Assembly: GCF_004010195.1 (NCBI RefSeq)
Contig: NC_057717.1
Span: forward strand, 103,612,631-103,676,630
Direction of reading: 5' to 3'
DNA: 64,000 bases
From: Chiloscyllium plagiosum
Taxonomy: Eukaryota
Shown: positions 1 through 63,893 of the stretch, piece after piece
Numbering within the stretch: position 1 is the stretch's first letter
How the letters are laid out: each line of letters starts with the position of its first letter
Program-made: the position numbers and the translations under genes
Notes under the pieces: generated by a model
Database searches by the model: none
Seen by the model: only the letters and a program-made list of their open reading frames with translations
Told to the model about the DNA's origin: nothing

Positions 1-84
1 AGATTGGTTCCTGCGATGGCCGGACTGATATAAGAAATGACAAGCTTTCAGAGTGCTGCTCCTTCGTCAGGTGAAGTGTCACTC

Positions 85-119
85 TACCTGATGAAGGAGC
101 GGCGCTCCGAAAGCTAGTG
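85..119 (+). ncRNA. Minimal type-I hammerhead ribozyme motif (family A)
   Basis: TAC-CTGATGA-A-GGAGC GGC GCTCC-GAA-AGCT-A-GTG. Confidence 0.7.
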
Positions 120-305
120 CTTTCAAATAAACCTGTTGGACTATAACCTGGTGTTGTGTGACTTTTGAACTTGTCCACCCAGTCCAACATTGGCACCTCC
201 ACATCGTCAAGTAGGAATGAATTGGAGGTGCCAATATTGGACTGGGATGAACAAAGTTAAAAGTCACACAATACCAGGTTATTGTCCAACAGGTTTATTT
301 GGAAG

Positions 306-340
306 CACTAGCTTTCGGAGCGCTGCTCCTTCATCAGGTT
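306..340 (-). ncRNA. Minimal hammerhead motif (family A)
   Basis: Reverse complement AAC-CTGATGA-A-GGAGC AGC GCTCC-GAA-AGCT-A-GTG. Stem I is only 2 bp. Confidence 0.65.
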
Positions 341-379
341 GAGGTAAACCTGTTGGACTATAACCTGGTGCTGTGTCAT

Positions 380-3630: not shown

Positions 3631-4359
3631 TGAATGCAGAAATGGTGCAAGCTCATTCTACAAGAAACACAATTAGCCTCTTACAATGCCCATGCATACA
3701 GGAACAGGAACAGGAAATCTTCTTTCCTTTACTCCCTTTTGAGGTTGGAGATGCTAAACATGATTACTCCAATCCTCCAAGCACATTGGCTGAGATCCAG
3801 CTAACTGACGCTGTGATCTTCCTAACACGTGTTAACCTTGGCAGAAGAGAAATTAAAATTGTTCATCTCGCCACAATCTTGCTTCTTGCAAGAACAATTT
3901 TACCTCCTTGAGGTCCACCGAAGACTGAAAGACTATAAGGAACAAAATTCGACCATTTACCCCCTTGAGTTTGTTCCCCCATTTAATAAGATGATAGTTG
4001 ATCTGGTTATAACTTCAAATGGACTTTCCTACATGCCCCTTTTCCACTTGAGTCCATCCACCTCTACCTTAAAAATATTCAAAAATGCTTCCACCATCTA
4101 GAGAGTTCCAAAGGCTCAGAAACCTCTAAGAGGAAACAGTTTGTCTAATCCCTGTTTGAAGTGGGTGACCTCTCATTTTGAAATGGTTTCTGTTCTAAAT
4201 TCTCCCAGAAGGGGAAATATTGGCTTTACGTCCACCCCGTTAAGACCACTCAGGCGAAGGTTTGAGATAGACTGCGAGCTAGCCAGTTTGATAAACCTCT
4301 GCGCTACTGGCTGTGATGAGAAGTATTTGCACAATGGCCGGTAACTGAGAATTGACTAC

Positions 4360-4455
4360 CTGAAGCAGAAGGTGATACTTGAGGACTCTTTGCATGGGCA
4401 CCATCAAGAGATCTCGTAGGGTGAACCGTCCATTGTTCGCTCTGTTGGAACATTC
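4360..4455 (-). CDS. vav1: VAV1-like exon 10: [32 protein letters not shown]
   Basis: 96 nt, ctctcag| and |gtagtc, phase 0/0. [12 protein letters not shown] is the VAV1 form; from memory VAV2 and VAV3 have GKF..DLLVVP. Confidence 0.97.
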
Positions 4456-5500
4456 CTGAGAGAAAACAGAGCAAGTGATAATTAACCCAGCAGCCTTAGA
4501 GGGATCTTACACGTTGTTTCTGCCGGTTGAATAATTAGAAGATGGACTTTGCGAAGACTTTACAAAGTGAGTCTTGTCATCATGATGTATTCTTTTATAG
4601 AACAGTCTCATCAATGGGACCCATCCTGTAAGCACACAACCCCCTCCAACCTCTTCTAACAGAGCAGTCTCCCCACAGGAACCCTCTCCCAACTTCACTT
4701 CACCTTTTGGGAAGGAAATCCGCCATCCTTACCTGGTCTGGCCTACATGTGACTCCAGACCCACAGCAATGTGGTTGACCTCCAACCTCCCTCAGGGCAA
4801 CTAGGGATGGGCAATAAACACTGATGTCCACAACCCATGAATGAATTTTGAAAAAACATTATTTCAACTTTATAAAGGGTTAATCTCCAAAGGGACAACA
4901 TTCAGGGAATTTCACACTGCCAGCATTTAAATGCAGTTGGTCTTCTCTAAATGTAATCTATGGTAAGATCCAAGGATCAAAATTTCTGTTGAAGGAGCAG
5001 AAAGCTACAACAAAACATTAGAAGACAAACGAGAGCCAGTACCGATCTAAGTTACAGCCTGACAACTTCCCAACCAGTCCTGGTTGTTGTGAACTTGCTC
5101 ACTGTTGGGTCTCACCAGCTTGTTGTCAGGTGTGACTCAGCATCACAGGGTCACATTGGGTTCAGACACTAAGCCATTTGAGGAGCTGATCTGAAAAAGC
5201 ATATCGCATCAACTAGCTCAGAAAGAGGCCATCAGCCCAACATGGTGCAAGCTCTGTGGTGCAGTTATCCAATTCGTTCCACTCCGTCTATGTCTTTGCC
5301 CATTTTTGTACTATTGTGTGTAAGTCTCATAGTTGCAGAGGTGCCACTGGTTTCCAAGCATGTTCCAGGTTTACTTATGAGAGTTTCTGCAAACGGAAAA
5401 TTTCTGCACTTATGCTAACATCTTAACTTCTGTTCAATGAAGCTCTGAGTCCACACCGAGGATTAACCAATCAAGCACAGTTCATTAGATCTGTAGTGAT

Positions 5501-6333: not shown

Positions 6334-6476
6334 CTTGAGGTGACCACAAGAAAAGGAGGCCATTAGTGAGCACAGCAGACGAAAGTCACGGTCAGTCAAT
6401 ACCCATCTCCCACCATAAACCACCACTGTCAGATAGCAGCAGAAACTGAATGAAAGAGGCACACACCACTAAATTA

Positions 6477-6600
6477 TGATGTGGAGATGCCGGTGTTGGA
6501 CTGGGGTGTACAAAGTTAAAAATCACACAACACCAGGTTATAGTCCAACAGGTTTAATTCAACCTGTTGGACTATAACCTGGTGTTGTGTGATTTTTAAC
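6477..6600. mobile_element. Family A PLE-derived foldback insert with 12-bp TSD
   Basis: accactaaatta at 6465-6476 and 6599-6610; perfect 40-bp inverted repeat inside. Confidence 0.8.
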
Positions 6601-7159: not shown

Positions 7160-7350
7160 TTTGAAAAACGTGGCGCTGGAAAAGCACAGCAGGTCAGGCA
7201 GCATCCGAGGAGCAGGAGACTCAATGCAGGTCTGATGCCTGAAACGTCGACTCCCCTGCTCCTCGGATGCTGTCTGACCTGATGTGCTTTTCCATCACCA
7301 CACTTCATCGACTCTGACTCTCCATCATCCCCAGTCCTCACTTTTTCTCT
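7160..7350. mobile_element. Family B PLE-derived inverted-pair insert
   Basis: gctggaaaagcacagcaggtcaggcagcatccgaggagcagg followed by its reverse complement; hammerhead core partly deleted. Confidence 0.75.
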
Positions 7351-8592: not shown

Positions 8593-8922
8593 CCCTAATC
8601 CTGAACCTTATCCTAGCTTTAATCCTAACTCTAATCCTGACCCTAACCCTAACCTTAATCCTAATGCTACTCCTGACTTTAATCTTAAAGCTGATCCTGA
8701 TCATAATTCTGACCCGAACCCTAACCTTAACACTGATGCTAATCCTGACCCTAAACCTAACCTTAATCCTAACCCTAATCCTACCCTTAATGCTAACCCC
8801 AACCCTGACCTTAATCCTAATGCTAATCTTGACCTTAATCTGAACCTTAATCCTGATTTTAATGATGACCATCACCCTAACCTTAATCTTAATACTAATC
8901 CTGACCTTAATCCTAACCCTAA
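8593..8922 (+). repeat. Degenerate hexamer array, telomere-like (CCCTAA/CCTTAA/TCCTAA/TCCTGA)
   Basis: About 55 hexamers in register. Explains the low-complexity ORFs 8537..8944 and 8582..9013. Confidence 0.9.
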
Positions 8923-15928: not shown

Positions 15929-16053
15929 GTATCCTGATGAAGGGCTTTTGCCCGAAACGTTGGTTTTCCTGCTCCTCAGATGCTGCCTGACCTGTTGTGC
16001 TTTTCCAGCGCCACACTAATCTTGACTCTAATCTCCAGCATCCACTTTCACCT
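15929..16053 (+). mobile_element. Family B PLE-derived insert with about 13-bp TSD
   Basis: agctgtttaaata at 15916-15928 and agctgtttgaata at 16054-16066. Confidence 0.75.
15931..15964 (+). ncRNA. Minimal hammerhead motif (family B)
   Basis: ATC-CTGATGA-A-GGGC TTTT GCCC-GAA-ACGT-T-GGT. Confidence 0.7.
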
Positions 16054-16883: not shown

Positions 16884-17869
16884 CTGAAAGAGAGTGAGGA
16901 AAGAGAGTTACCTCCAAATCCATCCAGCTCAAGAATGCACCAAATATTGGTCAGTGATCCCGACCAACTCAATCTTGAGGTGACTGACTGTCAGGTTAGA
17001 GGAGACATTGCAAACCAATTATCAGAACTGGAGAAAAGATGGAAGGTAATGAAGGCTAGTACAGAACAAACCATGCACCCTGTACCCTGGGAAAGTGAGA
17101 ATTCACAGATTCATTCAGACGAACATAGGGGCGTGGATTGAAAGGAGGGGGCAGGAGGTTCAGAGAGGATGTGAGGGAAGCAATGTTTTCACTCAGGGTA
17201 GTAGATGCAGAGAGAGTTTGGTGCTGGAAAAGCACAGCAGGTCAGGCAGCATCCGAGGAGCTGGAGAATCGACGTTTCAGCTGCCTGACCTGCTGTGCTT
17301 TTCCAGCACCACACTCGACTTTGATCTCCAGCATCTGCAGTCCTCACTTTCTCCTGGTCAAGGCAGAGATCCTTGTAAAAGTGAAAAAACATTTAGATTT
17401 GCACTTGCAATGCCAAGCGAAGGGGCCAAGTGTTGGGAAATGACATGAGAGTAATTAGGTGGTTGTTGGACTAGCACAGTTTCAACGGGCCGCAGGGTCC
17501 TTTTCAGTGCTGTACACATCTGAAACTCTAAATACTTCACGAAATAGGAACAAGCCTTATGTCCCCCAACATTTCTGTATTGGTATTTATCCTCCAGGTG
17601 AGAAAATAGCCCGTCCTTTACCCATTGTCTTTCACCCGCACGTCCGATCTAATCTTCAAATGGCAGTGCGATTGACACCTTTCTCCCTCTCACACCCCAT
17701 ACCCCAGTGGAGAAGTGCTCACATAACTCCATGGTGAGGCCAGGGAGTAGACTTTGTTGCCACAGCTGGGAAACAGTAGGATAGTTGTGAGGCCTAGGTC
17801 CAAAGATTTGGATTCAAATCCCATCTCATACAGCGGCTGGTGGCACTTCAGTCCAATGAGATTGAAAGC

Positions 17870-19947: not shown

Positions 19948-20700
19948 ATTTACAAGGACATTGACAGGGTTGGAGGGTTTGAGCTATAGGGAGAGGCTGA
20001 ACAGGCTGGGGGCTGTTTTCCCTTAAGCGTCGGAGGCTGAGGGGTGACCTTATAGAGGTTTATAAAATTACGACGGGCATGAATAGGATAAATAGACAAA
20101 GTCTTTTCCCTGATGTCGGAGAGTCCAGAACTAGAGGGCATAGGTTTAGGATGAGAGGGGAAAGATATAAAAGAGACCTAAGGGGCAACTTTTTCACGCA
20201 GAGGGTGGTACGTGTATGGAATGAGCTGCCAGAGGAAGTGGTGGAGGCTGGTACAATTGCAACATTTAAGAGGCATTTGGATGGGGATATGAATAGTTGA
20301 AAAATGTCGTGCTAGAAAAACACAGCAGGCTAGGCAGCATCCGAGGAGCAGGAGAATCGATGTTTCGGGCATAAGCCCTTCTTCAGGATTCCTGAAGAAG
20401 GGCTTATGCCCGAAATGTCGATTCTCCCCATTCCTGAAGAAGGGTTTATGCCTGAAACGTTGATTCTCCTGCTCCTCGGATGCTGCCTGGCCTGCTGTGT
20501 ATTTCCAGCACTACATTTTTCAACTCTGGTACTCCAGCATCTGCAGTCCTCACTTTCTCCTGGGGATATGAATAGGAAGGGTTTGGAGGGATATGGGCCG
20601 GGTGCTGGCAGGTGGGACTAGATTGGGTTGGGATATCTGGTCGGCATGGACAGGTTGGACCGAAGGGTCTGTTTCCATGCTGTACATCTCTATGACTCTA
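19948..20700 (+). mobile_element. CR1 3' fragment carrying a nested PLE-derived insert (20297-20560)
   Basis: ORF 20079..20300 encodes a CR1 C-terminus; the CR1 sequence resumes after a 15-bp TSD. Confidence 0.85.
20354..20391 (-). ncRNA. Minimal hammerhead motif (family B)
   Basis: Reverse complement GAATC-CTGAAGA-A-GGGC TTAT GCCC-GAA-ACAT-C-GATTC, with a 5-bp stem I. Confidence 0.7.
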
Positions 20701-23925: not shown

Positions 23926-24291
23926 GAGTGTTCTATTTCCAAATACCTCTTCTTAAATTTCCAGAAGACGTTTTGATTCACTTGCTCGCCAGTTTTCAAA
24001 TTAAGATACATTGCAATTTGAAAATTTGTTAGCGTTTTATTTAAAGGAACTTTTCTGCTTGTTTGAAGTTGTGAGCTTTCAGGAGGGCCTCGGAAGCCAG
24101 TAGAAGAGCTTTGGTCAAGTTTCTGTTGCTGGAACGTCAGGGGAAATGGAGTTATGGATGAAGAGAAGACAATCCTTGAAATAGCTGATGTAGACCATTC
24201 ATCCCCTTGGAGTGATTCCATAATCAATATGACGCTGGCTGATCTGTTTGTGTTTCAAATTCCACATTCCCATCCACCCCAATGATCATGA

Positions 24292-25205
24292 CGTGGAGGT
24301 GCCGGTGTTGGACTGGGGTGGACAATGTTAACAATCACACAACACCAGGTTACAGTCCAACAGGTTTAATTGGAAGCACTAGCTTTCGAAATGCTGCTCT
24401 TTCGTCAGGCCATTGATTGGTACCGAACTTGGCTATCAGCCTCTGCTCGCCCACTTTGTGTTGTTGTCTGTCCCAAAGTCCGCCTTGGAGGATGGTCACC
24501 TGAAGGTCCGAGGTCGAAAGTCCCTGACTGCTGGTGTTCCCCGACTGGAGGGAACATTCCTGTCTGTTGATTGTTGTGCGGAATCCATTCATCCGTTGCC
24601 ATAGCCTCTGCTCGGTCTCGCCAATGTCCCATGCCTCAGAGCATCCTTGCCCGCAGTGTGTGAGATAGACAACGTTGGCCGAGTCACATGAGTACCTGTC
24701 GCGTACCTGGTGGGTGGTGTCCCCATGGGTAATGGTGGTGTCCGTGTCGACACTCTGACACGTCTTGCAGCGTTTGCCGTGACAGGGTTGTACGGTGTTG
24801 TCCTGAGAGTCGGGCAGTTTGCTGCGAACAATGATCTGTTTAAGGTTCGGTGGTTGTTTGAAGGCGAGAGGTAGAGGCATGAGGAAGGTCTTGGCGAAGT
24901 GCTCATCCTCATTAATAATGTGTTGCAGGCCGCAAAGAACATGGCGTAGTTTCTCCGCTCCCGGGAATTACTGGACAATGAAGGGTTACCGAAACTGATA
25001 TGGTCATTCTAAAAGATGAAAGACTTAAACCAAACGTGTTGAATATTATATTCCATGATACTGCAATCCTGTTGCTATAAATTCTGTGACATATGATCCT
25101 GCTCCACTATCACCTGATGAAGGAGCAGCGCTCCGAAAGCTAGTGCTTCCAATTAAACCTGTTGGACTATAACCTGGTGTTGTGCGATTTTTAACTTTAT
25201 CCACC
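24292..25205 (-). mobile_element. Truncated Penelope-like retroelement with GIY-YIG endonuclease fragment and inverted pLTRs
   Basis: ORF 24350..24880 encodes AFKQPPNLKQIIVRSKL..PC..KRCKTC..CDSANVVYL.HC...IGET..RL..RMNG. Family A pLTR at both ends in opposite orientation. Confidence 0.9.
25111..25145 (+). ncRNA. Minimal hammerhead motif (family A, intact)
   Basis: CAC-CTGATGA-A-GGAGC AGC GCTCC-GAA-AGCT-A-GTG: stem I CAC/GTG, 5-bp stem II, palindromic AGCT. Confidence 0.8.
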
Positions 25206-25566
25206 CCAGTAAACCCCAGCCTCACAAGAATTCATTGTCCCTCTTTCTCAAAAGAGCTCAATGAGCTCTTCTCTACTGTATTCAGAGGTAGTGTTCCAAA
25301 TTCAGACAACCTTCCAGAAGAAAATTATCCTTCTCATTTCTCTCCCATATATTATCTGAACAATCGACTTAGATGGTAATACACACCTCTGGAGCAGGTG
25401 GGACTTGAATCTTGCCCACTCCGGCTCAGAGTTAGGGACATTATACAAAAACCCTCATCGCCATGGCCTTAAAGTGGCCTTATAATTTTAAAAGTATGGC
25501 TCAATTAGGATTTAACGGACAGCTTTCTCAAAGAGCTAGAAAAGGTGCAATGGGAATCTAGTCTAG

Positions 25567-25665
25567 ATCAGAGTGGTGCTGGAAAAGCACAGCAGGTCAG
25601 GCAGCTTCCGAGGAGCAGGAAAATCGACATTTCGGGCAAAAGCCCTTCATCAGGAATGAGGCAGG
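25567..25665 (-). mobile_element. Family B PLE-derived fragment with hammerhead motif (25622-25657)
   Basis: Reverse complement attcctgatgaagggcttttgcccgaaatgtcgatt. Confidence 0.75.
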
Positions 25666-26696
25666 GAACCTCCATATTCTCCACCCCGGGACATTTTGCC
25701 ACAATGGGAATCTGCCCTGGCACTGTAGGTGGGTGCCAGGGCACAATGTCCCAGTATAGAGACACGCAGGTCTCACGGAGGTCCCTGGATAAACAAGCAT
25801 TGTGGTTAGCCTCTGGCAAATCATTTCCCTTCCGAGGGATCAATATCCCTCCTTTGGATGGGAGCCAATCTGCTGAATAAAACGTAAACATTAACTAGTT
25901 ATAACTAAAATGTCGGTGGGTGTTGCCATATTGTACTAAGCTAGAGAACTGGGAGATTGAGAAACTGGCAGAAATAGAGAGGGAGAGCATAAGAGAGGTT
26001 TGGAGATAGAATTCTAGAGCTCAGAGCCATTTAATCAGAGATGCTCAAATGGCCAGGATTAGAGGAACACAGAAATCCTGGTATGGGCTAGAAAGTTGGA
26101 GAAGATTACTGAGATTTCAGTGGGGTTTAGAGCTGGACGAGATTACAAAGATTAGGGATTGTACGGCTGGAGGGAATTACAGAGGTGGAGGATTGTAAAG
26201 TTGGAGGGGAATCACAGGGATTGGGAATTGTAGGGCAGGAAACGATTATTGAGTGTGTATTCTGGCAGGAGGAGGCTACAGTGTTCAGGGAGGTTGCATG
26301 GTTGTAGGGGATTACAGGGAGAGGGAGGGATTTAATTGCACAGGGATTTTTAACAAGAATGAGAATGCTGAATTGGAGGTGCATAGCCAGGCTTAGACAA
26401 CATACCTCTAAATAGCAGCATTTTACACCATCTCACTGCAATATACTTTTGAACAATTTCTGAACAACGTTGTATCACAAAACATGTATTTCAGCCAAAC
26501 TGGACTCTTTGACAGTGGGCAATGATTCTTTTATTCTGCCTTCCTCAAAGTGCATTTTAAGTTTATTTCAATTACAACCTGAGCCTGGTCAGACTCACGC
26601 CGTCACCTCATACATAAACTGAGTCATTTTTCTCCAATGCAATATCTTCTAGAATTAAAGGGACCACTTTGCAATATCCTGACTATTAATGGTTGC

Positions 26697-26698
<2 letters not shown>

Positions 26699-29828: not shown

Positions 29829-29939
29829 GAGAGCAAGGAGAATGTGGATGTCACTCCCACAGGGAGAGCAAGGAGAATGTGGACGTCACTCCCACAGGGA
29901 GAGCAAGGAGAATGTGGACGTCACTCCCACAGGGAGAGC
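29829..29939 (+). repeat. 35-bp tandem repeat x3 within a CR1 relic
   Basis: Unit gagagcaaggagaatgtggacgtcactcccacagg. Confidence 0.92.
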
Positions 29940-38882: not shown

Positions 38883-39296
38883 GCTGAAAATGTGTTGCTG
38901 GAAAAGCGCAGCAGGTCAGGCAGCGTCCGAGGAGCAGGAAAGTCAACATTTCGGACTGAAACCCTTCTTCAGGACTGGGGAGGGGGAGGGGGAGGGAGCC
39001 CAGAAGTAAATGGTGGGGGATGGTGATAAGTGGATGCAGGTATTGTGATTGGTCAGTGGTGAAGGGTGGGACTGATAGGTGAGAATCACTATCATCATTA
39101 GACTCCCAATTCCGGGTTCTTACTGAATTCAAATTCCACCTGGCCCCAGGGTTATGCTCTTTCCTCATTCCTGAGGAAGGGCTCATGCCCGAAACATCGA
39201 TTCTCCTGTTCCTTGGATGCTGCCTGACCTGCTGCACTTTTCCAGCAACACATTTTCGGCTCTGATCTCCAGCATCTGCAGCCCTCACTTTCTCCT
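38883..39296. mobile_element. Composite family B PLE-derived insert with 14-bp TSD
   Basis: ctgtacatttcatt at 38869-38882 and 39297-39310; hammerhead motifs at 38941-38976(-) and 39167-39202(+). Confidence 0.85.
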
Positions 39297-41489
39297 CTGT
39301 ACATTTCATTCCTGATAATAAGATGGGGCTGATAGGATTGATCAGGTGACAAAGCAGATGAACTTTTGAAGGAATGCAGAGGTGGCTGGAAATATCCACA
39401 CCCCTGCCTGCAGCTGCACACTGCCTGAATCCTGGGACCCCAGGCGTATCTCATCATGGTTTGGAGTCAGAGCGGTGCTGGAAGTCAGAGTCAATAGATG
39501 AGGTGCTGGATGAGCACGGCAGGTCAGGCAGCGTCCGAGGAGCAGGAAAGTCAACATTTCGGACTGAAACCCTTCTTCAGGACTGGGGAGGGGGAGGGAG
39601 CCCAGAAGTAAATGGTGGGGGATGGTGATGAGTGGATGCAGGTATTGTGATTGGTCAGTGGTGAAGGGTGGAACTGATAGGTGAGTATCACTGTCATCAT
39701 TCGACTCCCAATTCCAGATTCTTTCTGAATTCAAATTCCACCTGGCCCCAGGGTTATGCTCCTTATGAAGTCAGGCCCTTCCCCAGACTGACTGACTCAA
39801 ACCCAAGCCCTCAGAGTTTACCTGGGCTCTCTGGATTAATAAGGTAAAAACAATGACTGCAGATGCTGGAAACCAGATTCTGGATCAGTGGTGCTGGAAG
39901 AGCACAGCAGTTCAGGCAGCATCCAAGGAGCTTCGAAATACACCAGCAAGCCATCTTTTTGCAAATTCTTTCAGCTAGGTGTGTGATGGGGCAGGTTCAG
40001 CCTGGCGCTTGAACGGGCGAGATTAACACATGATCTGTAACCTGGCTACGATTAATCGGTTCGGCTGACCTGCCTATTGAACACATCCGATAGGGGGAGG
40101 TGGGGCACGGTGGCTTTCTACAAACAGCATGTTGAACTACAGGCTGTGGATGAAAAGCAGTGCTGACTCGTCCTAGATGTACTGAGGTGAGAGGTGTTTC
40201 CCTTGGCCCTTGGCCACAGTGAAGAGAATGAGAGCGTGTGAGGTTTGGCCAGATGTAACTGTGGTCAAAGGAACGAGACAAGTCATCGAGGTGATGAATG
40301 TGACCAGGTTGGGTGCATCAAGTCCAGAGCAGGCATTGCTGAGATGCTGTGGTCAATAACTGAACTTATGATTCATTCTCGTTTGACACCCTTGCAAATA
40401 AAAAGGCCTTTTTGTCTGATCATCCTCTGCTTTTACCTCTGTCATCAAAACCATTCTTAAGTCAGTCACTGGCAGCATCAGAATTCGATCTTGGAATAAA
40501 TAAACATTTTATCTGAAAATACATACTGAAACCTTTTGGAATAACAATAAATGAAAGCTCCATCCGGACATCCAAAGTGAAGGTTGGATCCCAAGGCGGG
40601 GTTCGTGAGCTGTAACTTTGGGCTCATTTACCCCAAAGGCAGTGACGAGAGAGCTCAGTCTGAGTTATAACACCATGTCTCATACAGACAGACAGATCCT
40701 GCTCTGACAGGTCACCACTGCCCCTTCACCAAAGCCCTCCTTCCCACTGCCCATCCCAGTATCCCCACCCAAGCCTCCCATTCACTGACAGAACGTGACA
40801 ATTTCCATCCTGGGTCCTGGTGAGAAACAGTTCGGGAGGAGTTGGTCTGGAGAGAGAAAGGAAGTAGGTACCATCCTGACTCAGAAATATATCACCACTC
40901 GTTCAGTGTCACTGGGTCAAAATCCAGAAACTCCCTCCCTGAGGGCACTGTGGTCGTATCAACATCCCAAGGACTGCAGTGTTTCAAGAAGGTCACTTTT
41001 TCCAGGGCCATTAGGGACGGCCCAGCCAGTTAACCCCCACATCCCGTGAGCAAATAAAAACAAATAACAAATGAAATATTAGCTGCGATCGAACAGTGGA
41101 ACAGTGGAATTAAGCCAATGGGCCAAATGGATTAATTCTGCTCCTGTGTCTTATGGTTAAAAATAAATAATCTCAACTACAGAATGGTGGAAGCAAAACA
41201 CAAATTTGTCCCCCCCTTTTAAGGAGGAAACATTTTTAAAAATGTGTGCTGTGATTTAACTGTGATCTCAGTAATTGCATGATAGGACTCTGCTGGAAGG
41301 TCTGAAACCTTTCCAGCTCAGACCATCCTGCATTGCAGCCCTAACATATATATAAATGCTGTTTAAAAAACACTGAAAAGGCTGACCTGAGCTAATACAA
41401 CGAACAAAAGGACCTTTCTATCATCCCAAGTCCAATTATAAATCCCAGTTCCCATCTCAACTAACTCAAAAAAGATTCAGAGTGCTTTA

Positions 41490-44956: not shown

Positions 44957-47154
44957 ATAATTAGCTTGTGCATGCATCAGTGTGTCCTACTGACTGTGGG
45001 GTCATACGTGCAAGAACGGGAGACTTGGCAAGAAGGGGCTTGTGATCGTACGAACATGTGCACATCAGAATCAGGAGGCCATTCAGCCCTTCGAGCCTGC
45101 TTCACCACTCAACAAGGTTCGTGGCTTATCTGACTGTAACCTCAAATCCCCATTTCCACCTGAACCTGAGAACATTTCTTTAACAAGACCTTTTCTTTCT
45201 GTGGTGTCACTGGTGTAAATCGGGAAGAAAAGCAGCTCAGCATGTTAATCCGAAAGTACCCTGACAGTACAGGGCTTGGACTGGCCAAACAGTTAACTCA
45301 GAGAGAGGAAGGAGCTCTGATAAAGATATCAGACTTTGATTGGCTGTTTTTTGTTTGTTCTAAGAAATCAATGCATCAAAAACTACTTTAAAATAGCACC
45401 ACAGGGGGTCAATCAACCTTTTGCTAAATTGTGTGCACACTTGAGTGAGAATAATCCAAGGCAAGCAAGTCAAATGTTGCAAAGGGTCTTGGACGAATAA
45501 TAACTGTTTTCAAAGAGGAAGGACCATATTAGGTGCGAACTGAAGTTTCTCAATTTGCACCTTGCGTTGTTACAACCTTCCTTCGGCAGTTCAAAGTTAT
45601 TGCATCGCACAGGCACACCACACCAAAACATCTCTCTATACGCTCTATTTCCCACCAGAAACCACCAACAGCAGTAAAAGAGTTGCACTCTCAACATATG
45701 CAGCAACTTAATTGCATCCTGACAGAGTTAGCGGAACCAAAATAAAAACACACTCATTCAGCCGTTGAGAGTTGACTTAAAAGTGACAAGTCAGACCTGG
45801 TGGTGAGAGCAAAATAATCGATTGCCATAAACACCCACAGCAGCTCCAGTGAAGGGCCTTTACTGTAATCCCGCTCTACGCTGCTAATGAGGAGAAATGA
45901 TTGACTCAATCTGCTGGGAATACAAGGTGGAATCTCGTTGCGATATTTCACCCAGCCTTGCCAATCTGTGAAAAGAGCTCCCAGTCTGAATGGAGTGTCT
46001 TCCTTTTATATTCATTTTGTGGGATGTGGGTGTCACTGGCCAGGCCCAGCATTTATTGCCTGTCTCTAGCTGCCCCTGGAGAAGATGGTGGTGATCTGCC
46101 TTTTTGAACCGCTGCAGGGTGTGGAGGGGCAGTGCTGTTAGGGAGGGAGTTCCTATATTTTGACCCAGAGTCACCAAAGGAACGGCGATATATTTCCCAA
46201 GTCAAGGTGGTGAGTGGCTTGGAGGGGAACTTGCAGGGGGTGGTGTTCCCCTTGTCTGCTGCCCTTGTCCCTCTAGATGGAAGTGGTTATGGGTTTGGAT
46301 GGTGCTATTTCTGGACGTTTGATGAATTGCGGAGCATCATGTACACACTACTGCTACTGAGCATCAGTGGTAGAGAGAGTGGATACCCGTGCTGCAGATT
46401 TTGTTCCCTAACAGCACGGTATGAGCCCGAGGGACCACAACAGCTCAGGAAGGCAACTTACCACAACCTTCTCCAGAACAATCAAGGACAGACAATAAAT
46501 GCTGGGCCCAGCCAGCGACATCTACGTCCCATTAACAAATATTTTTAAAAAGTTGAAGATCTGCATTAAAAGCAGGAGATCAGCAGGTCTGGCAGCAACT
46601 TTGCAGAGAGAGAGAGAGAGAGAGAGACTGAGTTAACATTTCAGGTCAGCGACCTTTCTTCAGATAGTGAAATGTTAAATGTGGAATGTGAGCAATAAAG
46701 AGTGGGATTCCTTTTTTGAAACAAAAATGACCTTCAGGGAGAGGGGTGACTCTGACCAACCCCATTGGTTGGCTATTCCTCAGGTGTCCTGGTAACACAA
46801 CATCGTAACAGCACCAAAGGTGTTGGGGGATGGGGACACTTCACCCATTGTGTCTCTGCTAGCCCTCTGAAAGACCATTGTGCCACTCTTCGGCCTCTTT
46901 CTCTGTACCCTTCCTTGTTCCTCCTTCCTTTCTCGATAGGAAGTCAACTCCCCTCTGTGTTTTGTAATTGAACTCTGTCCCCAGCAAGCTCTTGGGGAGG
47001 GGTAGGGGGGGAAGCTTTCTCGATCTCGCTGAGTGAAGACTGCTTTCCCCTGTGTCTCCATCCCTTCCATTGCCACCCAATCCCATGCTCCCAGCCTATC
47101 CCCATGACCCTGCCTTGACCCTGCCTTGACCTTGACCCACACATCCCTAAGGAG

Positions 47155-49539: not shown

Positions 49540-49743
49540 CAAGCAATAATCGTAAAGGACAGTATCAGGAGATTTGTAATTTCAGGATGTCATTGGCTGG
49601 ACCAGCATTGGTTCCCAATTCCTCTTTGCCATTGAGAAGATGATAGCAGGCTGACTTCCTCCCACAATGTTATTCATTCCTCCCAGGACTGAGCACATCA
49701 CTGGACAGGCCAGCATTTGTTGCTTGTCCTTAATTGAACTGAG

Positions 49744-49938
49744 TCAAAAAGTGTGGCGCTGGAAAAGCACAGCCGGTCAGGCAGCATCCAAGGAGCAGGA
49801 GAGTCAACAGTTCAGGCAGAAGCCCTCCATCAGGAAGCCTTTCATCAGCTTCCTCGGATGCTGCCTGACCGGCTGCGCTTTTCCAGCGTCGCACTTTTCG
49901 ACTCTGACTCTCCACCATCTTCAGTCCTCATTTTCTCC
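49744..49938. mobile_element. Family B PLE-derived inverted-pair insert with 14-bp TSD
   Basis: ttaattgaactgag at 49730-49743 and ttaattgcactgag at 49939-49952. Confidence 0.8.
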
Positions 49939-51479
49939 TTAATTGCACTGAGGGGCTCACACAGCCTGTTCAGTTAAGAGTGACTGACCAACAGTTAACA
50001 TTGCTTTGGGTCTGGATATATACATATGCCAGACTTCCTTTCCCCGAAGAGGCATTAGCGAATCAGATGTGTTTCTGAAACAAACCATTATAGTTTACTT
50101 TCCAGATATATTCATTGAATTCATATTTCACCAAGCACCATGGTGAACCCATGTCCCCCAGAGCATTAACCTGAGCCTCTGCATTACTAGTCTGAAACAT
50201 TACCCCCAAGCCAGAGGTCTTCCCCCTACTCATTGATGATAGTCACCATTATTGAGAGCAGCGTTTTTTATTGCAGATATATTAATGTATTGAAATGGAG
50301 ATTGCCCCAGGGGTGGGATCTGAGCACATGGCTGTGAAGCATTAGTCCACACCAGAAGGAAGAACAGTCAATTGAACGCCCATCGTGTGGATGATTTGAG
50401 GGGGATGGGGGGGAGATGTCATTCGCTGTCCTCCTCCTTTCTGCTCAAAGGTCAGAAAGTATCAGGAAGCAGCGTTTTCACCTACATCAGAAGGCTGGAT
50501 CAGGTTCCAAGGAAATGCACATGAGACAAGGATTCAGGATCCACACAACAAAGCAGCCAGATACTGCAAAGGCAAAATGTTAGGGTTGGCGTTGTGGAAG
50601 GAAGAGATTAAACAGGCGCCTTAATCTGAGCCAGTTTGACAATGAGGAAAGATTAGGGAGGCTGAACAGAAGGAGCTCACCATCATCAACAGCAAAGCTC
50701 AGATGTATTAAACGATTCAGATCAGACAAAGTGATTTTATGACTGTGTCATTATATAATTAGAAAGAACGGTGCTGGGACAAATTACAGAACAGCAGGGG
50801 GGATGTCATTATTGCAGGATCCCAGAAAATAGAAGGGTATTTATGTTGCAAAGCAAGAGCCAAGTTAAACCCTGCAGCCTCGCCCACTCACGTTGATCTC
50901 GTTTATCAAGGGGAAACATGAGACAGGAATATTAGATCGGCACCAGTGAATTTAGCTCAACTCTCCCAGCCGTAAATCTCATTAAAGTCTGCCAGCATAT
51001 TTTTGAAGTTTTTGCTGGCTCCCTCCATTTTCCACCAACTTCGCCATGTTACAGTGCCATTCGGACCACATTCAGAAAACCGCCCACGTGGCGTTTTGGC
51101 AGCACATTCACCTGACCGAGTCATTTCAGTGAGCAGTGAGTCCCACTTCATGTCTAGCTTGTACCTGGGCAGGGATGGCCGAACCCTCTCCGACCTACTG
51201 TTCAATTATTCCGTCTTCGATTGTGTGAGTTTGTGCACCAGTGATGCTTACCGCATTTGATTTGTTACGCCTGGGCGAGGACTCAGAGAAAAATAGACAA
51301 ACTGGAGAAAGGGGGGAAAAGCAGAGCTGAAACATGGAGCAGACATTTCAAAGCACTCAATAATCAAATGTTGAATGGAGGTGGAAGCTATTATTGTCGA
51401 TGCAAGCTGAGGATGTGGAGGTGTCGGTGTTGGAGTGGGGTGGACAAGGTCAAAGGTCACGTGATACCAAGTTATAAGC

Positions 51480-51775: not shown

Positions 51776-52786
51776 ATGGGTTTATTTGGAATTAAAGTTT
51801 TCGGAGTGTTGCACCTTCGACAACTGAAGCTCCAAAGCTTGGGATTTCAAGTAAACCTGTTGGACTATAACCTGGTGTCATGTGACTTCTGACCGTGTAA
51901 ACAAGAGAGAATGTTTCCTTTGTGGGGGAGAAGACAGAAACAGGGGGCAGAGCAGAAAAGGAAGGGGCCTCTCGCTTGAATCAGAGATGCGTAAATTTAT
52001 TTTTCTCTGTCTGAGGAATTCTTCACTCCAGGTAATGGTGGAGGCAGAATTATTGGATATTTTTAAAACTGAGTTAGAAAGATACTTTGAAATTGCAAGC
52101 TTTCAGAGCCCTAAAACCTTGCGATTTCAAATAAACCTGTTGGACTATAACCTGATCTCGTTTGGTCTTTGACCTTGTCCACTCCAGTCCAACTCCAGCA
52201 CCTCCTGATTGACAATAAAGGAGGTCAAAGTGTAAGGAGAAGTAGGTGGGAACTGAGGCTACTGTCCTATCAGACACAGTCTTATCAGAAGGCAGAACAG
52301 ACTCGAGAGGCCAAATGGTCCTAAGTTGTGTGTTCATATCACGGCATACCCCCAGGGATGCCATAGGGTCTTTTGGAGGGGCAGTCACATCAGCTCAAGT
52401 ACTGTACAAAGTTAGCTGGTGTGTGCAGCTGTTCACCCAGGCAACATTGCCAGCAGCTGTGTAGTTTCACTGCACAAAAGACCCACAAAAGATGGAACAT
52501 ATCCAAGTATGAATCACTTCAATTCCAAGGTATGGGGTTATAAAAAAGACATGAAGTAAGACACTCCATTTTCTGTTTCTAACAGCATCTCAACCTCATG
52601 CAGGCTTCATGGCCATGGTTTCCCCTGAATAACTTCAGGCAGTTACAAAATTCATGCCGGCTTTTTTCCTTAGAAATAGAGCTGCTTCAGCTCACTCTTG
52701 TGGCTTGGTCAAAACCCAGCATGTGGGAAAATGATTACGTTTCATTTCACACTTGTAAGATTTCAGCCTGGTTCTATTCTAGCTCT

Positions 52787-52875
52787 GTTCCTTGGATGCT
52801 GCCTGACCTGCTGCGCTTTTCCCAGCAACACATTTTCAGCTCTGATCTCCAGCATCTGCAGCCCTCGCTTTCTCC
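52787..52875 (+). mobile_element. Short family B insert with 14-bp TSD
   Basis: tctattctagctct at 52773-52786 and 52876-52889. Confidence 0.8.
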
Positions 52876-53084
52876 TCTATTCTAGCTCTTTCAGGTGAGA
52901 CATTAGACTGAGACTGTCCACTCTGTTGGACATGAAAGACTCCACCCCAACATTTCATCGAAGATGAATAGAGTTCTTTGTGGATAACAGTTACATTCTC
53001 AAAGAACACTAATGCAGGTTGGACATTGAGCGCTTTCTGTGTGCACATTAGCTTTCTATAGGTGAACTGGGGAACTTAATTATA

Positions 53085-56215: not shown

Positions 56216-56914
56216 CTCATTTCTCACTGGACTTGGAGCATTCTTTTTTTGTGATTTATGATTTACATTTATGAAGGAGAGGTGATGGACTATTATTGCT
56301 GGACTATTAATCCAGGAGACTCTGATAATGTTCCAGGGGCCTGGGTTTGAATCCTGCCATGTCATTTAAAAGGCATCTGGATGGGTGTACGAGTAGGAAG
56401 GGTTTGGAGGGATAAGGGCCAAGTGCTGGCAGGTGGGACTAGGTTGGGTTGGGATGTCTGGTCAGCATGGACGGGTTGGACCGAAGGGTCTGTTTCCGTG
56501 CTGTACATCTCTATGACTCTATGACTGATGGTAGAATTTGAATTCAATAAGTATCTGGAATTAGAAGCCTAAAGGTGACATTGAAACTGCTGCTGACTGT
56601 CAGGAAAAAAACCCAACTGGTTCACTGGGGAAGGAAACCATCATCCTTACCCAGTCCAGACCCACAGCAATGGGAACCAAAAGCATAAATTGCTGGAAAA
56701 GCTCAGCAGATCTGGCAGCATCTGTGAAGAGAAATCAGAGTTAACGTCGAGGGACCCTTCCTCAGAACTGTTTATCCCACAGCAATGGGGATTGACACTT
56801 AACTGCCCTCTGGACGATTAGGGATGGGCAACAAATACTGGCCTGGCCAGCAATGCCATCAACCTGTGAATGAATAAAAAAGTATATAGCACCCCCCACC
56901 CCCCCCCAATCCCC

Positions 56915-58960: not shown

Positions 58961-58961
58961 A

Positions 58962-59770
58962 AGTCATAGAGTCATAGAGACATAGATGCATAATCATGTA
59001 GTACGCAAACAGACCCTTTGGTCCAAATAATCCACACCAACTATGTTCCCAAACTAAACCAGTCCCACCTGCCTGCGCCTGGCCCATATCCCTCCAAACC
59101 TTTCTTATTCATGTACTTATCTCTTTTAAATGTTGTGACTGTGCCCACATCCACCACTTCCTCTGGAAGTTCATTCCACACGTGAAACACTCTCTGTGTA
59201 AAAACGTTGTGCTTCACGTCCTTGGTAAATCTTTCTCCTCTCACCTTAAGAATAGTTTTGAACTCCCCACCCCAGGGAAATGACTCTTGTTATTCACCTA
59301 TCTATCACAGTTATATAAACCTCAATAAGGTCACCCCTCAGTCTCATGTACTCCAGCTTATCCAGCCTATTTTTATATCTCAAACCTTCCATTCCTTTTC
59401 AATATTTCTTTTCCCTTTCACCTTTCTTTGTTGCTGTGATTTAAAGGATCATTTGTTTTTTTTTTATGTGTGAGAAATATATAAACTAGCAGCAGGCATT
59501 GGTTTAGGGTGAGAGAGAAAAGATATAAAAGGAGCGACATTTTCACCCAGAGGGTGGTGCGTGTATGAAATGAGCTGCCAGGGGAAGTGGTGGAGGCTGG
59601 TACAATTACAGCATTTAAAAGGCATCTGGATAGATACATGAATAGGAAGAGTTTGGAGGGATACGGGCTAAGTGCTGGCAAACGGGACTAGATTGGGTTG
59701 GGATATCTGGTTGGCATGGACAAGTTGGACCGAAGGGTCTGTTTCTGTGCTGTACATCTCTCTGACTCTA
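58962..59770. mobile_element. CR1 3' fragments 58962-59380 (-) and 59495-59770 (+)
   Basis: ORF 59041..59244, plus a + strand CR1 tail. Confidence 0.82.
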
Positions 59771-60469
59771 AATAAGTCATTTGACTCTTTGAGACAGCTT
59801 TCTCCCTGGATCATTTTGCCCTACGAAACGTATCTAACTCTTTCTTGAAGGACATCAGTCCTGATTTTGCCTTTGACCCACATTTTCAGTTTTCTGTGTT
59901 CGGTCCCATGCACCCTATACTGAGACCTGCATGAAGTCACCTCTCGTTCCTACTGTCTCGGGTTTGAAGGCAATCTGTTTCTTAGATCCCTGCTGGTCAC
60001 CCGAAACTAGGGGAGTCCTGTTTGTAACATTGGAGAATGACATTGGGAAATCACATGGTTCTGGTGTTCACTGGTAGACCTTGGCAGGGGACGAGGGAGA
60101 AAGTCCACCCGCCAGTGGGCAAGGGAACATTGGCACAGTGGCAGCTGACTTCAAAATAAAGAAGCTTTATTCACGACTGAAAAATAACAGACACAACTGC
60201 AAAAGGAAATAGGTGGAGAGTGGGAGGAGGATGACTAATAGCGGGAATAAGGCTGAGAAACTGCAATACGAAATCAAACCTCAAACAAGTATCAATCAGC
60301 GAACAAGGAGTTTACAACAGAGAGAAGGAAGTGAACAATCAGCCATTAATCAGGTTGTAAGTCTGAGGTGCAATGTGTACAAATGAACAGGTCTTGATCT
60401 GAGTGGCAAGCACTGACTGTGTGGTACAGCAGGGAGCAGTACGTTAACCCTAGCTATTCACAGAGTACA

Positions 60470-61545
60470 TTAATCACTTTGATGAAGGACTCAAATGAAA
60501 AAGCTCCACGTTTGCAGACAACGCAAGGGTGGGAGGGCGAACTGCGAGGAGATTGCAGAGGTGCTCCAGTGCAATTTGGACAAGTTGAGTGAGTGGGCAA
60601 ATGAATGGCGGAAGTTGTACAATCTGGATAGACGTGAGGCTACCTACTTTGCTAGCAAAAACAGGAAGGCAGGTTATTATCCGAGGGGCGATAGGTTGGG
60701 AACGGGGCAGGTGCAACGAGACCTGGGTGTCCTTGTGCACCAGTCACCCATTCAGGTGCAGCAGAGGGTGAAGGTATAAATGCTACATTAACCTTCATCG
60801 TGAGAGGATTCGAGTGCAGGAGCAGGGATACCTTGCTGCAATTGTAGCAAGGGCCTTAGCGAGGTCACACCTGGAGTCTTGTGTCCAGGTTGGTCACCTG
60901 ATCTGAGGGAGGATGTTCTAGCAATGGAGGAAGTTCAGCAAAGGTTTACCAAACTGATTTCTGGGATGGAGGCACTGGTCGAAAGTGAGGACTGCAGATG
61001 TTGGAGATCAGAGTCAAGATCAGAGTGGTGCTGGGAAAGCACAGCAGGTCAGGCAGCATTCCGGGGAGCAGGAAAATCGACGTTTCGGGCAAAAGCCCTT
61101 CATCAGGAATGAGCAGGACTGGTGTATGAAAGGGGATTGGATTGGTCACTGGAGTTTAGAAGGATGTGAGGAATCTCGTAGAAACCGAAGAAATTCAAAC
61201 AAGACTAGACAGGGTAAGTGCAAAAGGGTGTTCCCTATGACCGGGGAATCCAAAACCCGGGGTCGCAGACTAAGGAAATGGGGTAAGCCGTTTCAGACAG
61301 AGCTAAGGAGAAACTTCTTCAGCCAGAGAGTGGGGGGAGCCTGTGGAATTCTCTGCCACAGAAAACATTTGAGGCCAAAACATTGAATGCATTCAAGAAA
61401 GAGTTAGATATGGCTCTTATGACTAAAGGGATCAAAGGGTGTGGGGTAAAAGTGGAAACAGCGTACTGAGTTGGATGGTCAGATTAAATGGTGGAGCAGG
61501 GTAGAAGGGCTGAATGGCCTACTCCGACCCCAATTTTCTATGTGT
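60470..61545 (+). mobile_element. Decayed CR1 with nested family B insert (about 60980-61112, -)
   Basis: LQCNLDKLSEWANEW..QRDLGVLVH; the CR1 sequence resumes after the insert. Confidence 0.82.
61075..61110 (-). ncRNA. Minimal hammerhead motif (family B, intact GUC site)
   Basis: Reverse complement ATTC-CTGATGA-A-GGGC TTTT GCCC-GAA-ACGT-C-GATT. Confidence 0.78.
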
Positions 61546-63361
61546 CTACAGAAGGAGCTCATTCTACACATCTGCACAAAGGTAGAATTAGCTAGTGAAT
61601 GTTGACCAGGGGGGGGGGTAACCTGCATGTGGATCCAGGAGATGTGGACAGAATCCTCAACAAATACTTTGCACACAACAAAAAAGAAAGATGAAGACAC
61701 AAGCTGGAGGACTTGTAAAATGTTAGAGAAAACTAACATGAAGAGAGAGGACATACTAGAGGGCTCAGCAGGCCAGGACGTGACATAATCCAGGCAGTTG
61801 AAGGAAGTGATGGAGGAGATATTTGAGGTCCTGATGGTATTTCTGAAATGTTCTCTGACCAGGAGGACAGGAGGATGCAAACATTGCGCAAGAGAGGGAG
61901 GAAGGGATAGACCAGGAAACTACAGGCAAGTTTGTCTAACCTCTTGAGAAGGAAGTTATTGGAAAGAATTCTACGAGATAGGGTATATCCGCACTTGGAG
62001 AGAGATGGGCTAATCCAGGAGAGGCAGTGCGGATTTGTTCAGGGAAGGTCATGTTTGACAAATTTGATGGAACGTTTGAGGATGTTTTGATGAGGGGACG
62101 TAAGTTGATGTGGTCTACGTGGAATGGTTTTGATAAGGTCACTAATAGGACACTGGTGAAGACCAGGGGATCTAAGGCAAAGTATTCCCTACGGTGCTCA
62201 ACTCTGTAAAGGTATCAAGCGCACTAATAGATGCCACATCCTCCTTCTGTAACGAACGTACCAACACCATTCCTTAAGTCTTGGCTTCAATGTGCATGAG
62301 CTGCTCCCTTGCCTCTATGGAGCATTTCCTCGATCATTTGTAAATTGACAACATTTCTCTAAGGGCTGTGAGACAATAGGAAGGTGAGGAAAGGAGGACA
62401 GGAAAGGATTTGAACATTTTGAAAGTGAGGACTTGGTGAACCGTTCCAGACTGAGTGTCGAGGGGAGTCTGACCGGCTGGGAGAGGAACCATTGGCAGTA
62501 ATTACCCGGATTTCTCCCAGAGAAGGAGGAATGGTGATCCCACTTGCCTGCCCTGACCCTATTAACACCAAACCTACCTTATGGCGCTCCCACCGGATTG
62601 AGAGGCCATGGAATCAGGCGGTTCAATCCAACAGAGGCAGCTCTGAACGGACCACATGTGGAGAAACAGATGGCACTGCAGCTAATTCTGGTCTGATCTC
62701 CCGCCCAATGTTACTTGAGGCAGTACAGCCACATTGAACTGAGGGCAAACTCAGTTCACTCAAACCTCTGAGGTTTTCATTCCCAGGGTGACTAATGCTA
62801 ACATTATCTGCATGGATTCTCTCAACATGCGTCACTCTAACTAGCTGCGTCTCTCCGGATTCCTTGTTAACCAGCCAAGGTTTTTTTTTTATTCATTCAC
62901 GGGATGAGGGTGTCACTGGCTGGACATCTCTAATTGCCCAGAGGGCAGCCATGAGCGAGTTCTGCATTGATTAAGTTCAGAAATAGCCCCAGCAGGGAAG
63001 GTGATGTCTATAACTGTGAGCACTGTCAGGCTATTTATTGTATTATTTCTGGGATATTGACATTGCTGTCATGGGTAACATTTGTTACCTATCACTATAT
63101 ACACTTAGCGTGGGCTATTAAATGTCAAACCCTTTGCTGTGGGTCTGGAGTCACATGAAGGCCAGACCAGGTAAGGATGGCAGATTTCCTTCCTTGAAGG
63201 GCATTAGTGAACCAGATGGGATTTTACCAACAATGGATTCATGTTCATCACTAAATTCTTGATTCCAGATTTTATTTTTATTGAATTTAAATTCCACCCT
63301 CTGCCACAGCAGGATTCAAACCCAAGTCCTCAGAATGTTACCTGGTTCTCTGGATAAACAG

Positions 63362-63893
63362 AGTCGAGAGTGATGCGGTACGGTGGCTCAGTGGTTAGCA
63401 CTGCTGCCTCACAGCACCAGAGACCCGGGTTCAATTCCCACCTCAGGCGACTGACTGTGTGGAGTTTGCACGTTCTCCCCGTGTCTGAGTGGGTTTCCTC
63501 CGGGTGCTCCGGTTTCCTCCCACAGTCCAAAGATGTGCAGGTTAGGTGAATTGGCCATGATAAATTGCCCGTAGTGTTAGGGGCAGGGGTAAGTGTAGGG
63601 GAATGGATCTGGGTGGGTTGTGCTTTGGAGGGTCGGTGTGGACTTGCTGGGCCAAAGGGCATGTTTCCACACTGTAAGTAATCTAAAAAAATCTAAGTGT
63701 GGTGCTGGAAAAGCACAGCAGGGTCAGGCAGCATCCGCGGAGCAGGAGAATCGACGTTTCAGGCATAAGCCCTTCATCAGGAACTGAAACGTCAATCCTC
63801 CTGCTCCTCGGCATGCTGCCTGACCCTGCTGTGCTTTTCCAGCACCACACTCTCGACTCTGGTCTCCCGCCCCTGCAGTGTTCACTTGCTTCC
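63362..63893. mobile_element. Family B inverted-pair insert containing a full HE1-like SINE (about 63373-63695, +)
   Basis: Imperfect TSD ctctggataaacag (63348-63361) and ctctagattaacag (63894-63907); hammerhead motif at 63749-63784(-). Confidence 0.8.

Follow-up and report, generated by a model that had tools for sequence, protein, structure and literature searches.

In the genome of Chiloscyllium plagiosum, a shark, we analysed a stretch of 64,000 nucleotides (nt) on contig NC_057717.1 (positions 103,612,631 to 103,676,630, here called the window) that contains many short motifs of the self-cleaving hammerhead ribozyme type. Judged from the sequence, these are very probably type-I hammerhead motifs lacking helix III, situated in dead, 5′-truncated 3′ ends of Penelope-like retrotransposons (Penelope-like elements, PLEs) that were inserted solo or as inverted pairs. 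Sequence comparison indicates that the motifs physically belong to PLEs, of which they represent the 3′-terminal 85-130 nt, and that at least three families are involved. Each copy in the window is a heavily 5′-truncated PLE 3′ end, which was put in either alone or as a head-to-head pair arising from a single event. The pairing of PLEs and minimal hammerheads is already described in other animals; the shark case extends this known link to a cartilaginous fish whose genome holds very many copies, which by itself is ordinary annotation. The termini of numerous natural insertions are consistent with the picture obtained in vitro for a PLE of an anole lizard, comprising two start sites, priming on both strands and an uncleaved template. 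They also suggest that the template has a defined 5′ terminus where the hammerhead begins, which bears on the question of the ribozyme's purpose.

Hammerhead motifs and their families

More than a dozen scattered hammerhead motifs had been listed in an initial annotation of the window, and a motif is present at all 15 of the places named there, in each case within a few bases. A loose pattern (CTGANGA..GAAA) matches the window 23 times, compared with 5.05 +/- 2.24 times (largest value 11) in 100 dinucleotide-preserving shuffles. The structural descriptor used in this study, composed of CTGANGA, 0-1 extra nt, a stem II of 4-8 base pairs (bp) with at most one G.U, a loop of 3-8 nt, GAAA, NN, U and H, has 12 matches in the window, none in the reversed window and none in 50 block-shuffled windows. 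Applied to a local sample of 296 kb, it delivered 85 matches, and the reversed sample gave none. The ANN′U palindrome is perfect in seven of the 12 window matches and CpG-decayed to ACAU or AUGU in the remaining five (Table 1). Four further motifs are decayed and were missed by the descriptor, one with two G.U pairs (20434-20465, plus strand), two with a weak stem II (38941-38972 and 39549-39580, both minus strand) and a family A motif that was absent from the initial listing (24376-24408, minus strand). Hammerhead remnants in a worse state of decay were found at 49800-49838 and 56737-56771 on the minus strand and at 7224-7262 on the plus strand. The Rfam search for hammerheads that had been proposed along with the first listing was run as well and left the motifs unmatched at any threshold tried: no hammerhead family appeared in the window at gathering score (0 matches) or among the 19 matches at E <=10, because the Rfam models fail to score motifs without a helix III hairpin.

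Three families differ in their stems. Family A is characterized by stem II GGAGC/GCUCC, the palindrome AGCU and A as cleavage-site base, family B by GGGC/GCCC, ACGU and C, and family C by (A/G)GGUC/GACC(U/C), A(C/U)GU and U. Subfamily D is a branch of B with helix I AGUC/GACU in place of AUUC/GAUU, where a U.U mismatch is changed to a G-C pair and helix I is fully paired (4/4). The helix III hairpin is absent, and positions 15.2/16.2 are palindromic, with AGCU in family A and ACGU in families B and C. All 85 descriptor matches of the local sample contain an unpaired extra nt between A9 and 10.1. A G10.1-C11.1 pair closes helix II in families A and B; the family C copy of the window has A-U at this position, genomic C variants G-C. 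With its extra nt after A9, G10.1-C11.1, palindromic ANN′U and putative short helix I, the layout corresponds to the minimal type-I hammerhead of PLEs (PMC4209133), as had been claimed from the first inspection. The further claim of a constant core with family-specific and yet paired stems was borne out across A, B and C by the descriptor output: at the pairs 10.3/11.3 and 10.4/11.4 both sides change among these families, three in number, with pairing kept. Because family A was shifted out of register when the families were aligned together with MAFFT, the descriptor output served as the basis for judging covariation among them. A covariance model built from 11 B/D copies turned out to be too family-specific; it assigned 8 bits (E 8.1) to family A, its top 10 matches were its own seeds and no new family was detected.

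In the 3.56-Gb genome, the 32-mer of family B has 47,522 + 47,262 matches with up to two mismatches (about 95,000), and that of family A 16,731 + 16,611 (about 33,000). The variants of family C and subfamily D that occur in the window were found 24 and 17 times, respectively, with up to three mismatches, and the reversed controls of all four queries gave 0 matches each. On this sequence evidence C and D are genuine old families.

For an estimate of constraint, copies picked without regard to the motif were compared with young copies, where the BLAST alignment had to reach the hammerhead. In family B, the 11 core bases were changed in 16 of 317 cases (5.0%) versus 204 of 1421 (14.4%) in the body of the element (p 1.4e-6). 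The variable positions of the same motif showed far higher values, namely 12/29 (41%) for N7, 27/116 (23%) for loop II and 7/29 (24%) for N17, and the comparison of core and variable positions resulted in p 4e-11. The extra base after A9 was changed in none of the unselected copies (0/29 in B, 0/9 in A). Stems vary among the families and the core does not, and the hammerhead appears to be kept by selection in the replicating master elements; about dead copies the constraint says nothing. The latter decay, chiefly at the CpG of ACGU.

Coding remnants and insertion anatomy of the elements

Self-comparison of the window placed the motifs at one end of repeats of about 90-130 nt, and further genomic copies were fetched, 34 of family A by a 32-mer and 33 of family B by a 50-mer. 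At one of the family A loci (L072, minus strand), an open reading frame (ORF) resembling reverse transcriptase lies upstream of the hammerhead (RVT_1, E 1.8e-4, below the Pfam cut-off). It is followed by an ORF of 257 amino acids (aa) with a CxxxxxCxxC linker and a GIY-YIG-like motif, whose end is about 750 nt upstream from the motif of the ribozyme. RVT_1 scores above the cut-off in two longer proteins from sharks that are homologous to the L072 ORF, P0003 (881 aa, 40.2 bits) and P0001, and the homologue P0011 has GIY-YIG above the cut-off (34.7 bits) in the region aligned to the L072 ORF. In the protein atlas, this ORF obtained 0.97 to clusters with GIY-YIG in 26-27% of their members. For family B, an ORF whose end lies about 210 nt upstream aligns to the PLE endonuclease region, with E 4e-8 for L072 and 5e-5 for P0011. 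Within the window, 24350-24967 on the minus strand shows 73% protein identity to the L072 ORF (E 4e-94). The Penelope derivation proposed in the initial annotation is supported by this coding remnant and by the reverse transcriptase/GIY-YIG ORF upstream in longer copies of A and B. Pfam, applied to 40 of the 115 window ORFs of at least 90 aa, yielded one RVT_1 fragment only, which is unrelated to the hammerheads, and its GIY-YIG model gave a single weak match over the whole genome.

The ends of insertions were recorded in a census of fragments picked without regard to the motif, comprising 22 of family A and 55 of family B. This small sample was taken from the window, from five random 10-kb pieces and from those parts of 60 3-kb loci that lie more than about 400 nt from the searched copy. 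Three window copies were themselves references of the census, and their extents were taken from a separate comparison. Element positions are counted from the C of CUGA. The 5′ ends of the fetched copies range from -5 to beyond -700 in family A (n=34) and, where upstream sequence was readable, from -18 to -455 in family B (n=33). Upstream of the hammerhead, 23 of the 33 family B copies contain a run of N, which in 15 of them comes as close as 36-142 nt and in 5 copies ends exactly at -66; the first 300 nt downstream are free of such runs. The 3′ ends are bimodal, falling at +75..+97 or at +122..+136 in the census and into classes about 35 nt apart in the fetched copies, and the two classes differ by the PLE tail of 30-40 nt. 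In head-to-head pairs, one arm only has the tail and the other arm is without it, which was observed in 14 of 14 pairs, one complex composite with convergent arms (L010 2076-2676) being left out of the count. Exact duplications of at least 9 nt (9-15 nt) surround 11 of 51 composites versus 0 of 51 in a shifted control. Target-site duplications flank solo copies as well as whole pairs, and since they bracket whole pairs, each pair goes back to one insertion event. A 5′ truncation, an adjacent inverted truncated copy and a tail of 30-40 bp at one end are described as PLE hallmarks by Craig et al. 2021. The truncation, inverted pairs, one-arm tail and duplications observed here agree with published hallmarks of PLEs (Craig et al. 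2021; PMC11167929).

At 24409/24416 of the window, a family A hammerhead piece starting at -1 is fused to an endonuclease-coding part, and about 800 nt of 3′ untranslated region (UTR) are missing. The appearance of this junction suggests either a deletion or a template switch in which the enzyme passed from one RNA's end to a second RNA. Stretches 52-94% identical to the PLE endonuclease ORF were also seen in the shark gene models P0006, P0007, P0009 and P0010 (NOXP20-like, PPP1R12A-like, septin 5a, XRCC5); they are probably transposon pieces absorbed by gene prediction. Head-to-head pairs are relevant for annotation in another way. At relaxed thresholds Rfam reported microRNA (miRNA)-like hairpins at 6522-6593, 7183-7287, 17221-17309 and 20362-20418 (E 3e-6 to 0.7, with scores far under the gathering scores), which are spurious and accounted for by head-to-head PLE arms.

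The 5′ ends of the census fragments are concentrated at the hammerhead. In 37 of 77 fragments (31/55 of B, 6/22 of A) they lie within -13..+10, corresponding to the 5′ strand of helix I, and 16 of the 28 arms with a junction fixed by the partner end within -10..+10. Four of the 55 B fragments have G12 (+20), which forms the 3′ foot of the hairpin of helix II, as their exact first base. Starts at the predicted cleavage site were seen in at most one of 55 B and in 0 of 22 A fragments, and because such starts are nearly absent, we infer that the copied RNAs were mostly uncleaved. These RNAs seem to have usually begun a few bases before helix I, and the ribozyme would rarely have cut before copying; the helix II hairpin appears to form in the template and to stop the enzyme sometimes. 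A rarely cut template is in agreement with the results for the anole element, whose catalytic mutants showed normal insertion and for which RNA ends at the site were not found (PMC11167929). In the window copy 39163-39292, the hammerhead shares its first bases with what seems to be a target-site duplication (TCATTCCTGA); this copy was either joined by microhomology or landed in an older copy.

Origin of the copies and role of the hammerhead

Cervera & de la Pena (2014, PMC4209133) described minimal hammerheads in the terminal repeats of PLEs from flatworms, insects, fishes, coelacanth, frog and reptiles, and reviews of the subject followed. The shark motifs have in common with them the CUGANGA and GAAA boxes, the unpaired nt between A9 and 10.1, the G10.1-C11.1 pair, the missing helix III hairpin with palindromic 15.2/16.2, families with co-varying stems inside one genome and the location beside a PLE ORF. 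A short helix I, of 4-5 bp in the known motifs, may have its counterpart in the mostly 3 of 4 pairs seen here. Shared as well are the mostly solitary and truncated copies and the opposite-strand pairs, 100-700 bp apart or closer. Differences concern helix II, which has 4-5 bp here versus 6-8 bp in the flatworm and fly examples, and abundance, as the about 95,000 and 33,000 32-mer matches compare with about 4,000 (coelacanth) and 9,000 (Xenopus) motifs reported. No title on hammerheads in sharks surfaced in our literature searches, the supplements of the 2014 paper lying outside that check.

The insertion process has been studied in vitro for PAc, a Poseidon PLE of Anolis carolinensis. According to that report (PMC11167929), both strands are cut and extended, reverse transcription starts internally at two sites located about 110-120 nt downstream of the hammerhead, catalytic mutants inserted normally, the enzyme mainly copied uncleaved RNA and the cleavage site showed no RNA ends. 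The shark elements would resemble PAc in having the hammerhead about 110-120 nt before a pair of neighbouring start sites for reverse transcription, in a tail equal to the stretch between those sites, in the cutting and extension of both DNA strands and in uncleaved RNA as the main template. However, the PAc ORF starts inside the hammerhead, whereas in family B the reading frame opened by the AUG of CUGAUGA is closed after 17 codons. The tail on one arm only and the concentration of 5′ ends at helix I were observed in genomic sequence in the present analysis and do not come from the PAc paper. From the known biochemistry of these elements, the PLE enzyme would nick both DNA strands, and reverse transcription would start inside the RNA at one of two neighbouring sites, giving ends with or without the tail. 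For the masters, the published proposal is that the predicted hammerhead would serve in the self-cleavage of long or tandem PLE transcripts as dimers; cleavage of minimal hammerheads as dimers is ascribed to Lunse, Weinberg & Breaker 2017 in PMC6765202. The copies inside the gene analysed here are relics, which probably do nothing.

At this point, several observations that weigh against the reading as truncated PLE ends with hammerheads have to be considered together. The Pfam GIY-YIG model fails on the ORFs of the window and of the fetched loci, so that the domain call leans on homologues and on motifs read by eye. Among the copies fetched there is no full-length element, although no search aimed at full-length elements was made. 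Helix I is weak, since most copies of families A and B have 3 of its 4 pairs (AUUC/GAUU, CCAC/GUGC). Monomer B motifs are predicted to fold into another hairpin that buries core bases, helix I is absent from monomer folds, and the fold energies of monomers are ordinary (z -1.7 to +1.4). Preferential conservation of the core, which the initial annotation had named as a test of its reading, was obtained for family B and not for family A, where 3/104 core versus 30/490 body positions were changed (p 0.24, not significant). The constraint sample favours conserved hammerheads, an effect to which the contrast within the motif is less exposed. Finally, the pile-up of 5′ ends could in part be an alignment effect of upstream differences between subfamilies and is certain only at junctions marked by a partner or a duplication.

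The copies had originally been described as non-autonomous, retrozyme-like PLE derivatives. Of this, the origin from PLEs stands with the upstream ORF, and the likeness to retrozymes is not supported, as the window holds no tandem array with hammerheads and the copies are dispersed solo pieces or inverted pairs and truncated. Non-LTR (long terminal repeat) retrozymes of animals do share the type-I hammerhead, the presumed dependence on PLE enzymes and a sequence kinship with PLE terminal repeats. A 2026 preprint (Li, Clavereau & Pollet) ties them to PLEs and includes one cartilaginous fish. Retrozymes are tandem arrays of units extending from cleavage site to cleavage site and form circular RNAs, whereas the copies of the window are dispersed, inverted or solo and bounded by a reverse-transcription start site. 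None of the nine tandem-repeat rows in the window contains a hammerhead. The sole tandem case in the sampled loci is a 357-nt unit with family A end and hammerhead (L025 1409-2121, 2.0 units, 96% matches). From their sequence, the best reading of the window copies is that autonomous PLEs left them as 3′ ends that were dead on arrival.

A related explanation would make the short copies a self-standing unit of about 85-130 nt, reaching from the hammerhead to the reverse-transcription start site, which resembles a short interspersed nuclear element (SINE) or retrozyme and is mobilised in trans by PLE enzymes from source genes of its own. The clustering of 5′ ends at helix I in both families, the occurrence of solo short copies with target-site duplications and the very high copy numbers speak for such a unit. 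So does the preprint, which derives animal retrozymes from PLE terminal repeats and finds retrozymes in its one cartilaginous fish. A short 'mini' class beginning at the hammerhead exists among the census fragments, which leaves room for a trans-mobilised short template. However, exactly the same 32-mers are found in copies running upstream into the 3′ UTR and the ORF, the 5′ ends also form a continuous truncation series that reaches the coding region, and the short copies are without upstream sequence able to serve as promoter. Together with the lack of hammerhead arrays in the window and the single two-unit duplication in the sampled loci, this makes the self-standing unit improbable. Much less credible again, to a degree that we hardly consider it, is a co-option of sense-strand hammerheads by the host gene as intronic self-cleaving ribozymes regulating the Vav pre-mRNA. 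The host exon was indeed found on the minus strand, as were 10 of the 16 motifs, four of these complete, and a review reports conserved intronic hammerheads in amniote genes. However, 10 versus 6 does not amount to an orientation bias, the genome contains these same sequences about 128,000 times, the copies decay here in the ordinary way with CpG loss foremost, and minimal hammerheads are reported to need a nearby second copy and to cleave poorly even then.

Returning to truncated 3′ ends of autonomous PLEs, a tentative and rather doubtful extension is that the hammerhead forms the extreme 5′ end of the RNA copied by shark PLEs, which would give short RNAs of hammerhead and entry module. Transcription or processing would then begin in the 5′ strand of helix I, at a distance of 2-8 nt from C3 on its upstream side. 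The start stretch of B and D (TCATTC, TTATTC or CCAGTC) may resemble the consensus of an initiator element. Truncated copies that keep the 3′ UTR would fire short RNAs consisting of the hammerhead and the enzyme-entry module of 85-130 nt, and the PLE enzyme would copy these to their end. A template starting at the hammerhead would explain why about half of the fragments start there and why more than 100,000 copies exist in the genome. The second stop at the base of helix II and the near-absence of cleavage-site starts would also fit.

Features of the window and the host gene

Table 1. Positions of PLE-derived pieces and of the host exon in the window. Extents are element positions; "perfect" and "CpG-decayed" refer to the palindrome of descriptor matches.
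Feature	Position	Strand	Remarks
Family A fragment	38..78	-	hammerhead 38-70, perfect (AGCU), stem II GGAG/CUCU, N17 = U; inner arm facing 86-213
Family A copy -2..+129, tail	86..213	+	hammerhead 88-120 complete, perfect
Family A copy -2..+122, tail	217..339	-	hammerhead 305-337 complete, perfect
Family A arm +34..+75, no tail or hammerhead	339..379	+	head-to-head with 217-339
Vav-type DH (RhoGEF) exon	4345..4476	-	host gene strand
Family A arm +34..+125, tail, no hammerhead	6474..6562	-	
Family A arm +34..+84, no tail	6553..6600	+	pair 6474-6600 flanked by duplication ACCACTAAATTA; Rfam miRNA-like match is the fold-back
Family B arm +33..+82, no tail	7170..7217	-	
Family B arm +3..+125, tail	7224..7344	+	hammerhead with internal deletion
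Family B solo copy -2..+110	15932..16042	+	hammerhead 15934-15965, perfect, N17 = U; flanking AGCTGTTT(A/G)AATA-like duplication
Family B arm +20..+81	17219..17278	-	start exactly at G12
Family B arm +47..+133, tail	17279..17361	+	
Family B arm -2..+82, no tail	20306..20388	-	hammerhead 20355-20386, CpG-decayed (ACAU)
Family B piece -4..+36	20388..20427	+	hammerhead 20392-20423, CpG-decayed (AUGU)
Family B arm -8..+126, tail	20426..20557	+	hammerhead 20434-20465, two G.U in stem II
Triple piece	20306..20557		flanked by 15-bp duplication TGGGGATATGAATAG
Family A copy -1..+123	24286..24409	-	hammerhead 24376-24408 decayed, stem II AGAGC/AUUUC
PLE coding remnant, 571 nt	24416..24986	-	zinc-finger-like linker and GIY-YIG region, 73% identical to L072 ORF
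Family A copy -47..+111	25069..25223	+	hammerhead 25114-25146 complete, perfect; head-to-head with 24286-24986
Family B solo copy -19..+92	25560..25671	-	hammerhead 25622-25653, CpG-decayed (AUGU)
Subfamily D copy	38884..38984	-	hammerhead 38941-38972, helix I AGUC/GACU, weak stem II
Family B copy -8..+126	39163..39292	+	hammerhead 39171-39202, N7 = G, CpG-decayed (ACAU)
Subfamily D copy	39476..39592	-	hammerhead 39549-39580; local duplicate of 38884-38984
Family B fragment from +29, no hammerhead	39818..39939	-	
Family C hammerhead, old family	46631..46665	-	motif 46631-46663, CpG-decayed (AUGU), stem II AGGUC/GACCU, N17 = U
Family B/D arm -3..+96	49741..49836	-	core mutated (CUGAUGG, GAAC)
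Family B arm +36..+126, tail	49847..49935	+	pair 49741-49935 flanked by duplication TCCTTAATTG
Family A fragment +54..+123, no hammerhead	51408..51476	-	
Family A fragment +16..+91, decayed	51829..51902	+	
Family A fragment +22..+116, decayed	52114..52205	+	
Family B fragment +35..+128	52785..52877	+	flanked by duplication TCTATTCTAGCTCT
Decayed copy	56691..56771	-	body matches B +45..+77; family-C-like hammerhead remnant 56737-56771
Family B solo copy -27..+82	61024..61128	-	hammerhead 61075-61106 complete, perfect
Family B arm -3..+85, no tail	63696..63783	-	hammerhead 63749-63780, perfect, one G.U
Family B arm +20..+124, tail	63786..63887	+	start exactly at G12

The copies had first been assigned to introns of vav1. 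The exon at 4345-4476 matches the DH domain of Vav (E 8e-16 to VAV chains of the PDB, the next family at 0.005), and a Vav-type host gene is in line with this. The match is to Vav in general, with VAV1 not separated from VAV2 or VAV3; an SH2 match was found nowhere in the window, and no other Vav exon was looked for.

Some further features were noted. Within the gene region, 8593-8923 is a degenerate telomere-like tandem repeat of CCCTAA/CCTAAT variants with about 28 units of 12 nt. An RVT_1 fragment at 28047-28607 on the minus strand (E 6e-22) belongs to another retroelement and has no hammerhead piece adjoining. Tandem repeats were detected at 29829-29939 (35-nt unit, 3.2 units, 98% matches) and at 31829-32340 (53-nt unit, 9.7 units, 90% matches). 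Among the fetched loci, L073 contains at 1-1504 on the minus strand long open frames of 408 and 455 aa in which a peptide-like unit (…YSTAHHTVLL…) recurs, the underlying sequence being a tandem repeat open in several frames.

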